IMG/VR virus record: IMGVR_UViG_3300036520_000019
Coordinates: 1-40,850 of that record
Direction: 5' to 3' (one strand)
Length of the DNA: 40,850 nucleotides
Origin: a virus
Taxonomy: Duplodnaviria; Caudoviricetes
In this document: one piece after another, positions 32,923 to 40,850 of the stretch
How the letters are laid out: the number at the start of each line of letters is the position of its first letter
Numbering within the stretch: the stretch's first letter is position 1
Translations under genes and position numbers: made by a program
Notes under the pieces: model-generated
What the model was told of the DNA's origin: nothing
Database searches by the model: none
What the model saw: only the letters and a program-made list of their open reading frames with translations

Positions 32923-33384
32923 ATGCCCCCTTGGAATTACTTTTGTTTTTTATCGCATAGAGGCGACGATGTTATTGATCAGTGGCATAACACCTTATCT
33001 AAAAAAGCCAAGGCAAAGTTCGAGCGAACTCGTGATCAGCTCAGAGACCAACCGAAAACTGAATGGTCACGCCCTCTTGCAAGCCCATTAGGAAATCACA
33101 TATATGTGATACGATTCACGGATGAGAATCGTATGCAGCATCGGGTATTCGGGCACTTCAACGACAATTTCAGCGCATTTGCAATGACCAATACAGGAAC
33201 AGAAAAAGATGGCGCCTACATTCCTTCAGACTATCTTGACCGAGCAACAGAGCACAAACACACGTGTGATCAGCAGTTCGCAGCTCGGACTAAGCAATGT
33301 TTCGGTCTCGATCCTGTACCAGGGGCAGATAACGCAACCCCAGGAGAGGTCGCGCGCGATCCCGGCAAACCAACGATCCATTAG
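32923..33384 (+). CDS. RelE/HigB(Gp49)-like toxin
   Basis: G.DVIDQW..L..KAKAKF..RP.ASPLGNHIYVIRF..QHRVFG pattern; upstream of an HTH gene. Confidence 0.7.
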   Translation: MPPWNYFCFLSHRGDDVIDQWHNTLSKKAKAKFERTRDQLRDQPKTEWSRPLASPLGNHIYVIRFTDENRMQHRVFGHFNDNFSAFAMTNTGTEKDGAYIPSDYLDRATEHKHTCDQQFAARTKQCFGLDPVPGADNATPGEVARDPGKPTIH

Positions 33385-33733
33385 ACAAAATTGGTTTGAT
33401 AGAGAGTATCGAGAAGCTTACATGGACGCTTCAATCGAAGAAGGTGTTGCTTGGCAAATCAAAGCTAATCGGCAGAAGCGAGAAATGTCACAAGAAGAAC
33501 TCGGCCGACTAATTGGGACTACTCAATCAGGCATTTCGCGTGCTGAAGATCCCGAGTATGGAAAGCATTCTCTGGAAACGCTTGTAAAAATGGCGCATGC
33601 TTTCGATTGTGCCTTGTCAGTACGTTTTATCCCCTATTCAAAACTAGCCGAAGAGAGTCAAGATCTCAGCCCGGCAGCCCTATACGCGCCCTCTTTTGAG
33701 GAAGAATTTGGACAAGGAAATGTAGATGGATAA
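33209..33733 (+). CDS. XRE-HTH (HigA-like) antitoxin; start uncertain
   Basis: QIKANRQKREMSQEELGRLIGTTQSGISRAEDPEYGKHSLETLVKMAHAFD. Confidence 0.85.
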   Translation: MAPTFLQTILTEQQSTNTRVISSSQLGLSNVSVSILYQGQITQPQERSRAIPANQRSIRQNWFDREYREAYMDASIEEGVAWQIKANRQKREMSQEELGRLIGTTQSGISRAEDPEYGKHSLETLVKMAHAFDCALSVRFIPYSKLAEESQDLSPAALYAPSFEEEFGQGNVDG

Positions 33734-34052
33734 CCAAACCCCAATGGATTCGACTCAGGTTATGGCAGAAATGCAAAAACATGCCCAAGCACTGAAAATC
33801 GAACATCCGGTTCTTTATGCGGATCAAATGGCTGCTTTCGCATTTGGTCCTTTTGTGTCGAAGCTAATATTGGCACAAGAGTCATTCCCACCAGGAAGCC
33901 AAAGGCCCGTGGTCACAGTCGTAATGCCGACCAATATCCTTCATCAAATGGCGTCTGCCATAATTGCGAATCTATCAAATGAAGAGCACCAAAAAGGTAT
34001 GCGACACTCTTTTGAGGAGTACCAGAAGCAGGTTGAATTGGCTAAAAATTAA
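33726..34052 (+). CDS. Hypothetical protein, DUF3467-like, third gene of the TA operon
   Basis: AAGGA SD, overlap with antitoxin; LYAD..F..SKLIL..VVTVVMP pattern. Confidence 0.75.
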   Translation: MDNQTPMDSTQVMAEMQKHAQALKIEHPVLYADQMAAFAFGPFVSKLILAQESFPPGSQRPVVTVVMPTNILHQMASAIIANLSNEEHQKGMRHSFEEYQKQVELAKN

Positions 34053-37598: not shown

Positions 37599-38279
37599 AT
37601 GACCACACCACAAGAAGCATTGAAGCGTGCGCGGGAAGCGTTACTGGCTGTTGAAGCGTATCCAGACATCCGAAGGGAGATCGGCACGGATGTACATGAC
37701 AAAGTTCTTGCCGCCCTTGCCGCTCTCGATAGCGCGCAAGCAGCGCCAGCCGGTGCGCCGGAAGGATGGACGATTGAGCGAGCGGATCAGAAGCTGTTCA
37801 AGGCGATCAAGATAAAAGCGCCTAATGGTTTTACTGCAATAGCGTCCAGTATTGCTATCAATCCTGAAAATGTCTTGTACATGCTGGCCGATGCATTGCT
37901 TGCCGCAGCCCCGCAGCAAGACCCAATGCAGGAATTGGTAGATCAGGCGCAGGCATTGAACATGGGATACGCGCAGCAAGACACCGCGCAGCCAGTAGCG
38001 CATCCCGACGAAAAGATCACGATGACCTATCGACAGTATCTATCGTTGGTAGGTGCGCAAGAAGCGCAGCAGCCTATCGGACAAGTCGTCATTTATGACA
38101 ACGGCCAGCGGTACGACCTTTGCACAACCGGCGAACAACGGGCGCGATTGCTCAAAATGAACGGAATGCCGCTCTACGCCGCTCCACCATCTGCCGCACC
38201 AGCGCATCTCAGCAACTGCGCCACTAGCAACTATCCAGATGGTCCGGTCGGGCCGTGTAGCTGTGGAGCAAAGGGATGA
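37599..38279 (+). CDS. Mosaic hypothetical protein with Ala/Pro/Gln linkers
   Basis: GAGGA SD; PLYAAP motif typical of phage early-region mosaic proteins. Confidence 0.75.
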   Translation: MTTPQEALKRAREALLAVEAYPDIRREIGTDVHDKVLAALAALDSAQAAPAGAPEGWTIERADQKLFKAIKIKAPNGFTAIASSIAINPENVLYMLADALLAAAPQQDPMQELVDQAQALNMGYAQQDTAQPVAHPDEKITMTYRQYLSLVGAQEAQQPIGQVVIYDNGQRYDLCTTGEQRARLLKMNGMPLYAAPPSAAPAHLSNCATSNYPDGPVGPCSCGAKG

Positions 38280-38527
38280 ATATCTACCGCTATCAGTTTG
38301 CAGCGGCTTGCCCTATCAACGATGCGCAGATCATCTACCAACTGACCATTGAGACCACGCACATGATTCACGTTGAGCACATCGTTACGTTTGCGGCTTT
38401 GCACAAAACTGGCTTCCATGAAGATCTTGCCGACAAGTTCTACAACAAGTTTCGCGGTAGGCAAACCATGACAGCGCATCACCATGGCGTGAATATCGAA
38501 ACCATTAGGGGAAAGTCTGATGTTTGA
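38276..38527 (+). CDS. Minimal QueF-like (QueF-L) T-fold protein
   Basis: ACP..Y.LTI, FHEDLAD and HHGV motifs; next to queD-like and dpdA-like genes. Confidence 0.65.
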   Translation: MNIYRYQFAAACPINDAQIIYQLTIETTHMIHVEHIVTFAALHKTGFHEDLADKFYNKFRGRQTMTAHHHGVNIETIRGKSDV

Positions 38528-38924
38528 ACTCTCTCAGGATTTCACCTTCGACGCCGCGCACACCCTCACCCGCGCGGTGCCACTGGCTGAATTTACGCCG
38601 AGCAAACGCGTGCATGGCCACACCTACACCGCCACCGTGACGGTGGCCGGCACCAAAGGCGCCGCCGGCATGCTGGAGTTTTTCACGCTGCCAAAGAACA
38701 AACGGCAAACGGTCGATTTGTTCTACCTGCGCAAAGCCATTGAATCGGTGCGCTCGAAGCTGGATCACCACTTTCTTGACGAAGTTGCCGACCTGGGAGC
38801 GCCCACGCTGGAAAACCTATGCGTGTTTATCTGCGATCAGATCAAGAAAGACATGCCGGTGTCAGCGGTTACGGTACGCCGGATCGGAAGCGGAGATGCA
38901 TGCACGTACAGGGTAAAGCCATGA
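38520..38924 (+). CDS. queD: QueD/PTPS family protein
   Basis: FDAAH, HGHTY, LDHHFL, PTLENL. Confidence 0.9.
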   Translation: MFELSQDFTFDAAHTLTRAVPLAEFTPSKRVHGHTYTATVTVAGTKGAAGMLEFFTLPKNKRQTVDLFYLRKAIESVRSKLDHHFLDEVADLGAPTLENLCVFICDQIKKDMPVSAVTVRRIGSGDACTYRVKP

Positions 38925-39613
38925 CGCTCAAGTACCACGGCACGCCGATTACCCCTATCGAGCAGATCATGCGGATGGTAGGTCGGAATTTCTGTGTGCC
39001 GTACCCTCGCCCTGACGACTTGCGCCGCTGCTTACAGATTGCCTCATCCATCATGTTCGATAACGGCGCCTTTACCTGCAAAACCCAAGGCATCCCGCTC
39101 GACGAGAAAGGTTTTTATGAGTGGGTGGAGCCGATTCTTGGTCACCCGCATTGGGCGGTTGTGCCAGATGTGATTGATGGAAGCGTTGAGTTGCAGAGGG
39201 AAATGACGGCACGCTGGCCTTTCCCCCGCGAGCTGGGCGCTCCGGTTTGGCATCTTGGCCTGCCTATCGACTATTTGCTGGAGTTGACCGACGAATGGCC
39301 GAAAGTCTGTTTCGGATCGGCCGGCAGGTACTGGAACATTAACTCGCCGGAATGGTGCGCCAGGATGGATGAAGCATTCAATGCTCTTGCCAAGCACCGC
39401 ACCAGAATGCCGTGGATTCACGGGCTTCGGATGCTAGGGCAAATGGATCAGGATTGGCCGCTGGCGTCCGCTGACTCCACCAACGTGGCGCAGAACTTCA
39501 AGCGGGACGGCGGCTGCGCGGAGTGCAAGGCGGCAAAGATAGACGCAGTGCAATGCCCAACGCACTGGAACCCACGCGCCGAACAATGCAGTTTGTTCGA
39601 GCAGGCAGCATAA
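38921..39613 (+). CDS. DpdA/TGT-like transglycosylase
   Basis: FDNGAF, PDVI, PVWH, IHGLR, SADST match TGT/DpdA barrel motifs; ATGA coupling to queD. Confidence 0.75.
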   Translation: MTLKYHGTPITPIEQIMRMVGRNFCVPYPRPDDLRRCLQIASSIMFDNGAFTCKTQGIPLDEKGFYEWVEPILGHPHWAVVPDVIDGSVELQREMTARWPFPRELGAPVWHLGLPIDYLLELTDEWPKVCFGSAGRYWNINSPEWCARMDEAFNALAKHRTRMPWIHGLRMLGQMDQDWPLASADSTNVAQNFKRDGGCAECKAAKIDAVQCPTHWNPRAEQCSLFEQAA

Positions 39614-39625
39614 GGAGGCAAACAC

Positions 39626-39847
39626 ATGAGCGCCGTATTCCTTGAAGAATCGGAAATCGTCGTTTTGACCGGACGTAAAATCAAGTCCAAGCAGATTGAA
39701 GCCCTGCGGAAGATGGGCCTGCCCTTTTTTGTTAACGCAGTCGGCAAGCCGATCGTGACGCGTTCGGCAGCAGAAGGTCGCAAAGAGCAGCAAATGCCAA
39801 CCAAGTGGGAGATGCCACGCCATGGGTCGAAAGCCAAGCAAGCATAG
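39626..39847 (+). CDS. Excisionase (DUF4224-like)
   Basis: FL..EI..LTGRK..QIEALRKMGLPF.VN..GKPIV; AAGGAGG SD; overlaps int. Confidence 0.85.
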   Translation: MSAVFLEESEIVVLTGRKIKSKQIEALRKMGLPFFVNAVGKPIVTRSAAEGRKEQQMPTKWEMPRHGSKAKQA

Positions 39848-40850
39848 CAACTTGCCCCCGCACATGCGCAGACGGGCGCAAAAGTCGGGCAAGGTCTATT
39901 ACTACTTCGATACGGGTGAAAAGCCGCGCCGGGAAATTCCGCTAGGCGATGACTATATTGCAGCGCTGCAAAAGTATGCGGAGCTGCGCCGGAACGTCGA
40001 GGTGGCCGCAACCGTGTTCGGTGATGTGATTGACCGGTACGTGCGCGACGTTCTGCCTACCCTCGCCCGAAATACGATAAAGACGCATACCAGCGACATG
40101 AAGCACATCCGGTTTTCGTTCAGTACCGCCCCGATTGACCAGATCCGCCCGATGCACATTCAAGCCTTTCTGGAGGATCACCGGGACAAGCCGACCACGG
40201 CAAACCGTTGCAAGCGGCTGTTTTCCACGCTTTGGAACCATGCGCGGGGATGGGGTTATACGGACGAGCCGAACCCATGCACCGGCATCATGGGCCATTC
40301 CATCGAAAAGAAGACCGCCTATGTGACCGATACGGTATTTAACGCGGTACGGGACTGCGCCAGCGATGCGCTTAAAGATGCGCTTGATCTGGCTTACCTC
40401 ACCGGCCAGCGGCCCGCCGACACCCTCAAGATGCGCGGCAGCGACATTGCCAACGGGTTCCTGGAGATTAGCCAGGGCAAGACAAAGAAACGGCTGCGTA
40501 TCTCGATTACCGGGGCGCTGGCCGAATTGCTTGGCAGGATTGCGGTACGGAAGGCGCAGCACAAGATTATCCACGACCAACTTCTGATGAATCGGGACGG
40601 CAAACCGTTCACTCAGCCAGCATTACGGAGCCACTTTGACGCAGCACGTAAGGCGGCGAAATTGAAGCATCCGAAGCTGGCGGCACAGATCGACAACTTC
40701 AAGTTTCGGGATTTGCGGGCCAAGGCAGCGGATGACACGTCCGACCAGCGTGGACAGCAGGCGGCAAGCGATCTTTTGGGCCATGACAACGTGAAAACGA
40801 CGCAACGGCACTACCTGCGTCGGGGTAAAATTGTCGAGCCGACGAAGTGA
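39822..40850 (+). CDS. int: Tyrosine integrase
   Basis: LTGQRPAD, KT, FRDLRAK, LLGH..TT..HY catalytic motifs. Confidence 0.96.
   Translation: MGRKPSKHSNLPPHMRRRAQKSGKVYYYFDTGEKPRREIPLGDDYIAALQKYAELRRNVEVAATVFGDVIDRYVRDVLPTLARNTIKTHTSDMKHIRFSFSTAPIDQIRPMHIQAFLEDHRDKPTTANRCKRLFSTLWNHARGWGYTDEPNPCTGIMGHSIEKKTAYVTDTVFNAVRDCASDALKDALDLAYLTGQRPADTLKMRGSDIANGFLEISQGKTKKRLRISITGALAELLGRIAVRKAQHKIIHDQLLMNRDGKPFTQPALRSHFDAARKAAKLKHPKLAAQIDNFKFRDLRAKAADDTSDQRGQQAASDLLGHDNVKTTQRHYLRRGKIVEPTK

Follow-up and report, generated by a model that had tools for sequence, protein, structure and literature searches.

Phage DpdA proteins acting on host-derived precursors are a known kind of system. The closest described relatives of the locus reported here are the DpdA1 proteins of the "DpdA-only" group (7-11 gp032, MED16 gp38, HK106, SfI, and SEN1), which rely on host FolE, QueE, and QueC and have YhhQ as an optional neighbor (PMC6884629, PMC8306585). 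The group is described as lacking genes for synthesis of G+ (archaeosine) or preQ0 (7-cyano-7-deazaguanine), and the DpdA-only rows of Supplementary Data 1, part 1, hold no entry for QueD or QueF-L (PMC6884629). We analyzed a 40,850-nucleotide stretch of viral DNA (IMG/VR record IMGVR_UViG_3300036520_000019; hereafter, the window) encoding a DpdA that shares the small TGT barrel and invariant pocket of this group. Unlike the published group, the window also carries two T-fold genes beside DpdA, one for a QueD lacking the canonical cysteine (QueD*) and one for a minimal QueF-L-like protein (the small protein).

We put at about even the chance that the prophage DpdA exchanges a small share of DNA guanines, that the small protein and QueD* feed it, and that the product is the known base dADG (7-amido-7-deazaguanine), the most likely outcome. 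The activities of all three proteins are predicted. The cassette comprises the following genes:

38276..38527, + strand: 83-residue minimal T-fold protein, QueF-L-like; C12, E34, H48, and E49 kept, Ile19 at the Asp site, invariant His69 at QueF-L Tyr90, no NADPH motif
38520..38924, + strand: 134-residue QueD of the Cys-less/Arg type (QueD*); S28 and R121, with zinc ligands His14/32/34, D66, D82-H83, and E98 kept
38921..39613, + strand: 230-residue small DpdA (DNA guanine transglycosylase) of the 7-11/MED16/HK106 clade; D47, D83, H111, G132, H167, R170, D185

These open reading frames (ORFs) overlap by 8 nt (83- and 134-residue genes) and 4 nt (134- and 230-residue genes, counting the latter from the ATG at 38921), in agreement with the translational coupling described in an initial annotation of the window.

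The small DpdA and its expected product

The 230-residue protein has a TGT barrel and belongs to the DpdA-only clade already known from phages. It matched PHROGs family phrog_887 (queuine tRNA-ribosyltransferase, E 8e-40) and had no match in Pfam or NCBIfam; searches of PDB sequences with the protein and its profile returned nothing useful, and its structural placement is by fold alone. Its predicted model (predicted local distance difference test [pLDDT] 84.8) aligned with Cap10 (Z 11.6), arcTGT (11.3), DpdA 7ui4 (10.7), and TGT (10.5) at root-mean-square deviations (rmsd) of 3.5-3.6. TGT-family folds made up four of the top five rows, and Cap10-CdnD ranked first in both Foldseek and VIA. The phrog_887 and structure matches thus confirm the TGT barrel that the initial annotation had placed at 38921-39613.

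Relatives of this protein number 2,582 at 90% clustering, and 105 of 50,697 phage records carry one. They include 7-11 gp032, HK106, SfI, SEN1, BTP1, PEAT2, and Athena1, all DpdA entries in Supplementary Data 1 of Hutinet 2019 (PMC6884629). Salmonella phage 7-11 DNA contains 50 dADG per 10^6 nt (PMC6884629), and that of Pantoea phage MED16 contains 354 dADG and 3 dPreQ0 per 10^6 nt (PMC8306585). The window DpdA is 34% identical to the 7-11 protein and 41% identical to that of MED16, and D47, N48, G49, D83, H111, G132, H167, R170, and D185 are invariant in all 142 distinct DpdA sequences, these two included. The conserved acidic and His pocket residues presumably match the catalytic aspartates of TGT. 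All nine positions are alike in copies linked to QueD, YhhQ, or the small gene (57 thinned rows).

Because the 230-residue protein belongs to a known clade with dADG-bearing members, dADG is the default base to expect, and exchange of G in DNA by the window DpdA is predicted by analogy. The initial annotation had favored a different base; a pocket that stays the same across partners, and as in dADG-bearing MED16, speaks against this. Restriction resistance is doubtful, since only 0.02-0.13% of G is modified in the measured relatives 7-11 and MED16 (PMC6884629, PMC8306585) and MED16 DNA is still cut by every tested enzyme not blocked by Dam methylation (PMC8306585).

A QueD without the canonical cysteine

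The 134-residue protein matched PF01242 (E 1.6e-21) and scored 60.7 bits against NCBIfam QueD (TIGR03367), below the cut-off of 89.25. With described QueD/PTPS-I enzymes (E. coli 4ntm, Cx3HGH; QueD2, Cx4HGH) it shares the PF01242 fold, the three zinc-binding histidines, and equivalents of Asp54, the Asp70-His71 pair, and the ring-binding Glu. Alignment to E. coli QueD bore out the initial annotation's reading of the active site, with S28-K-R-V-H32-G-H34 in place of C27-x3-HGH and with H14, D82-H83, and PTLE98 retained. A further substitution had been overlooked: R121 aligns to Glu110. QueD* therefore lacks the Cx3HGH motif and differs from E. coli QueD in Cys27 to Ser, Glu110 to Arg, and the loss of His25. 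In the E. coli enzyme we take Glu110 and the His25-Asp54 pair to be catalytic. The phage QueD* subclade also has a 12-residue insertion (53-64), unlike QueD/PTPS-I.

The substitutions are conserved rather than sporadic decay. Among the best 120 of 1,354 relatives, Ser and Arg were each found in 120 of 120. We also counted the pairing across all distinct QueD-like rows gathered, a sample biased to the Ser type and with 12 incomplete rows set aside: all 6 Cys rows had Glu, and all 271 non-Cys rows (Ser 262, Tyr 5, Asn 2, His 2) had Arg. The D, D, H, and E positions were retained in 270 of the 271 Arg-type rows. The Tyr, His, and Asn forms (L267, L269, L271, L272, L326-L328, L330, L334) all carry Arg, and several lie in queC-queE-queD operons, making the class wider than the Ser type.

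Genome context points to the function of these proteins. We examined 26 genomes, the best-scoring Cys-less QueD cases from samples of 251 and 401 genomes. They were picked for a Cys-less QueD (23 have the Ser type), are 99-100% complete, are proteobacterial (9 families, 15 genera), and are not independent. In all 26, queE is adjacent to the Cys-less QueD, and QueC, QueF, and TGT are present. The Cys-less gene is the single PF01242 gene in 22; the other four have an additional paralogue of the FGPAQ type, the signature of PTPS-IV (PMC5445326), and one of these four also has a Cys-type QueD gene broken by three stops. No intact Cys-type QueD was found in the 26 genomes, nor was a small DpdA, in a search that had no positive control in the set. 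Of 80 metagenome QueD* loci, 7 have DpdA (one being the window's own DNA), and queE adjoins in 71 of the other 73. Bacterial QueD* orthologues thus cluster with queE (and queC) and with a full queuosine (Q) pathway, as QueD/PTPS-I genes do.

Cys-less QueD is therefore a housekeeping, queE-linked type of many bacteria and not a phage invention, and queE-linked bacterial copies rule out QueD* as phage-only. Since it is the sole intact QueD type in these genomes, which have queE adjacent and a full Q pathway, QueD* is likely a working synthase of 6-carboxy-tetrahydropterin (CPH4) with another active-site design. The initial annotation had read the Ser as a mark of phage-specific activity, or of a protein that merely binds its ligand; neither proposal fits this distribution, and a binder role for QueD* is contradicted by genomes that have only the Cys-less type alongside a full Q pathway. 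The comparison implies a widespread class of bacterial QueD working without Cys, which bears on annotation of the queuosine pathway. In a quick tree of 85 of 181 rows, phage copies were nested among bacterial ones in several places, forcing at least three label changes; from this tree, phages appear to have captured the Ser/Arg QueD repeatedly from bacteria.

Another Cys-less QueD paralogue adjoining DpdA has been described: DpdL of Cellulophaga phage phiST, proposed to be a decarboxylase of 7-carboxy-7-deazaguanine (CDG) (PMC10516641). DpdL has LxxxHRHxF and two Glu and is additional to QueD and QueE, whereas QueD* has SxRxHGH and Arg and replaces QueD (PMC10516641). Lacking LxxxHRHxF and one of the two Glu, QueD* is ruled out as a DpdL.

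Two further QueD-like arrangements were seen. A reduced domain of ~95 residues, with the His triad, DH, and Arg and without Ser or Cys, is fused to a small T-fold in P0262, P0265, P0277, and P0288 and stands alone before DpdA in Caulobacter phage DMCA (L088:2708-3004). At L092:2185-5085 and in L246, queE-queD*-queC lies beside a gene for what we take, from its motif, to be a DGQHR-domain protein, a possible defence-island context.

Full-text literature searches returned no description of the Ser/Arg QueD class or of the small-protein family, although earlier COG0720 work and reviews beyond their scope may list the class. The available text of 10.64898/2026.04.15.718813 and PMC5041015 names neither helper family, and the Cui 2023 supplement lists none of six accessions from two related phages. 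A published PTPS sequence network left 14% unassigned (PMC9894224) and may already include the Cys-less class.

The small protein and the identity of the base

Archaeal QueF-L (archaeosine synthase, 5jyx) and QueF are the models for the 83-residue protein. Its predicted structure (pLDDT 97.1) matched QueF-L best (Z 12.8, rmsd 1.6 over 83 residues), followed by QueF (Z 9.6). Sequence comparison gave less: there was no match in Pfam or NCBIfam, PF14489 included, and the profile matched QueF-L weakly (E 0.066), below a peptidyl-tRNA hydrolase row (0.011) aligned on a C-terminal His run. Against 5jyx, C12, E34, H48, and E49 correspond to Cys21, Glu46, His62, and Glu63, with Ile19 at Asp28 and His69 at Tyr90, a residue of the QueF-L ammonium pocket. 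The protein is thus a minimal, phage-borne T-fold with the Cys, Glu, and His-Glu of QueF-L and likewise no NADPH motif, but without the Asp seven residues after the Cys, as the initial annotation had noted.

The family comprises 847 clusters at 50% identity. Among the best 150 of these, C12 was found in 149, E34 in 147, H48 in 136, E49 in 150, and H69 in 149; the Asp site was Ile in 125, Val in 24, and Met in 1, so this substitution, too, is conserved (149/150 Ile or Val), and positions 35-39 are variable. Without the NADPH-binding motif expected after the first Glu and without the catalytic Asp, the protein is ruled out as a QueF nitrile reductase. In both QueF and QueF-L this Asp is the general acid/base (PMC5485725). 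By strand order, His69 ends a strand expected to pair with the start of the strand bearing Ile19, and from this secondary structure, rather than a measured distance, His69 could replace the missing Asp. The family is tied to deazaguanine metabolism by fusions with YhhQ (P0376) and, in four proteins, with short Cys-less QueD-like domains. One member beside DpdA (L001:3744-4004) has both the Asp and the His and offers a natural control for Asp-less members. In a same-genus genome (L336:1489-2145), a small domain with a 135-residue extension lies between nuclease-like and integrase-like genes, with no DpdA in 3.2 kb.

A four-step scheme would account for dADG. QueD*, despite missing the canonical Cys and Glu, would carry out the committed conversion of dihydroneopterin triphosphate (H2NTP) to CPH4 and draw pterins toward host QueE and QueC; this step is suggested by genome context, and QueD* occupies the slot held by the YhhQ importer in sister phages. 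Host QueE and QueC would then yield CDG, ADG, and preQ0. The genes are present, and the flux is presumed: the 96%-complete host genome encodes canonical Cys-type QueD next to QueE, along with QueC, QueF, TGT, and YhhQ, consistent with the initial annotation's proposal of host precursors. In the least certain step, Cys12 of the small protein would attack the nitrile of preQ0, free or in DNA, as QueF and QueF-L do; with no NADPH motif or Asp, and with His69 standing in as acid/base, water would convert the thioimide into an amide, making the protein a predicted preQ0 nitrile hydratase. DpdA would exchange G after replication, a step known from relatives alone. The small protein would raise the yield of dADG and would not be needed for trace amounts.

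Several points weigh against this scheme. The function of QueD* rests on gene context, and published accounts hold the QueD Cys to be required (PMC9894224, PMC10516641); the D197N/A/H variants of E. coli QueF lose activity (PMC13740343), and both helpers lack a residue shown to be essential in their models. No small gene was detected in the dADG-bearing phages 7-11 and MED16; the small protein is therefore no more than a booster, or else alters the product. In the DpdA tree, these two phages make up the branch furthest from the rest. Long unrelated fusions also contain the small domain, and in L336 it has no DpdA within ~1.5 kb. The barrel Z-scores lie within ~1 of that of unrelated PdxJ (10.9), and the locus counts given below hold many near-copies and come from sets drawn by different queries.

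If the small protein were a true QueF-L-type amidinotransferase, with His69 standing in for Asp, DpdA would insert preQ0 and the product would be dG+ (archaeosine in DNA). The fold match to QueF-L clearly exceeds all others, QueF-L uses free ammonia on preQ0 already in nucleic acid (PMC5485725), and the L001 protein retains the Asp. We consider this outcome improbable, however, given that both Asp28 and Tyr90 are altered family-wide, that phage "QueF-L" calls tested so far gave dPreQ1 and not dG+ (PMC6884629), and that relatives of the window DpdA carry dADG.

The small protein might also be a preQ0 binder or covalent trap without turnover, leaving DpdA alone to set the base. As a sink it could deprive host tRNA modification or a deazaguanine-dependent defence of precursor; as a carrier it could hand preQ0 to DpdA. 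The protein has lost the catalytic Asp but retains the Cys and the substrate-anchoring E34, H48, and E49, the thioimide that archaeal QueF-L forms with free preQ0 is stable and does not turn over (PMC5485725), and the small domain is found away from DpdA. Such a role is nonetheless rather unlikely: His69 equals the Cys in conservation, which is more typical of a catalytic residue, and a sink is hard to reconcile with a neighboring QueD or YhhQ that boosts supply.

Alternatively, the altered sites may yield a different, undescribed base, such as a decarboxylated, thio-, or protein-linked 7-deazaguanine. Both substitutions are family-wide, phages took the Ser/Arg QueD several times and not the Cys type, though the host has a Cys-type QueD (searches seeded with Ser-type sequences under-count Cys-type captures), and decarboxylation of CDG has been proposed for DpdL (PMC10516641). 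The absence of the DpdL signature from QueD*, its standing as the sole QueD in many bacteria with a full Q pathway, and the constancy of the DpdA pocket whatever the partner make this unlikely. Least probable of all is that the barrel, a bare 230-residue domain with Cap10-CdnD as top match, targets host tRNA or, like Cap10, a deazaguanylated protein, the very low and non-protective modification in relatives being a side effect: the matches to Cap10, arcTGT, DpdA, and TGT differ by no more than 1.1 Z, the virion DNA of two relatives contains the base, and the gene lies among phage DNA-metabolism and methyltransferase genes.

Returning to dADG, its origin in DpdA-only phages is left open by both measuring papers (PMC6884629, PMC8306585), and the cassette offers a small candidate enzyme for its formation. 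Should dADG be the product, the advance would lie in mechanism, the base itself being known already. A more far-reaching outcome, which we regard as unlikely but worth stating, would be two new T-fold chemistries. One, a CPH4 synthase free of Cys and Glu, would be the true QueD in many alpha- and betaproteobacteria. The other, of 80 residues and founding a family of more than 800 clusters, would act as a Cys/His nitrile hydratase or produce an undescribed base, and would explain dADG in small-DpdA phages, giving heavily modified temperate phage DNA from host precursors.

Partner genes and prophage context

Two locus sets were drawn by different queries, 86 loci fetched with DpdA and 80 viral loci fetched with QueD*. 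In the first set, YhhQ/Vut_1 (PF02592) was present in 65 of 86 by direct search (a cluster-based count had given 72/86), the small gene in 8, and QueD* in none. In the second, DpdA was present in 79 of 80, the small gene in 2, and YhhQ in none. The apparent exclusion between YhhQ and QueD*, which we read as alternative precursor-supply modules, is only suggestive. In the DpdA tree the window copy falls within a YhhQ-rich branch, from which QueD* seems to have replaced YhhQ. The order small gene-QueD*-DpdA is repeated in L104 and L106, where the DpdA belongs to a different starred subclade, and the partners of DpdA (YhhQ, the small gene, and QueD*) are all deazaguanine-related. The small gene adjoins DpdA in three cultured phages (Epa33, RHph_X2_30, and Mae-JY30); loci sought from the small-protein side numbered none in plasmids and none with the Asp-keeping L001 form as query, and a small-protein search of related genomes was positive in 1 of 150.

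Other genes recur near small DpdA (L002-L086), with C5 DNA methyltransferases in 20 of 86 loci and PAPS-reductase-like genes in 16 of 86. L134, L146, and L248 combine QueE, QueD*, and small DpdA, and the DNA retrieved for them contains no QueC; this longer cassette would lead no further than CDG. Two cultured phages that are unrelated to each other, DMCA (L088:3726-3980) and RHph_X2_30 (L091:3748-3993), share an uncharacterized protein of 81-84 residues next to the DpdA module.

The window is nearly an entire prophage. A 40-bp direct repeat at G000:C243 15420-15459 and 57337-57376, overlapping tRNA-Gly(CCC), is the attachment (att) repeat, which supports the temperate lifestyle given in the initial annotation; the whole prophage is ~41.9 kb and reaches ~1 kb past window position 1. 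Its genes include those for head, tail, lysis, replication, Erf, single-stranded DNA-binding protein (SSB), NinB, xis, and int. The genes flanking the cassette are as follows:

37599..38279, + strand: 226-residue ORF without a family match, context only; not seen as a conserved partner
39626..39847, + strand: excisionase (xis), context
39822..40850, + strand: tyrosine integrase (int), context; prophage at tRNA-Gly(CCC)

An ATGA overlap joins the upstream 226-residue ORF to the start of the 83-residue ORF. Because xis and int come after it, the cassette lies near the end of the early-left block and not, as first described, at its end; the label "pL operon" itself is suggested by gene content alone. 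The statement that folE, queE, and queC are missing from the window stands for the latter two, with queE, queC, and yhhQ all absent by tblastn; for folE and other Q-pathway genes there was no match among 59 ORFs compared with PHROGs, a general scan with no search aimed at folE itself. Promoter and terminator scans of the window gave chance-level results.

Two further gene groups were noted in the window. Convergent glycosyltransferase-like (weak GtrB-like match; 940-1881, + strand) and methyltransferase (1878-2627, - strand) genes lie by the endolysin, a possible surface-conversion moron. After the immunity region, 32923-34052 (+ strand) holds a 153-residue ORF without a match, a helix-turn-helix (HTH) protein, and a 108-residue ORF, with terminator-like hairpins on its flanks. 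The 153-residue ORF and HTH protein, of which only the HTH gave a match, presumably resemble a RelE/HigB-type toxin-antitoxin pair.

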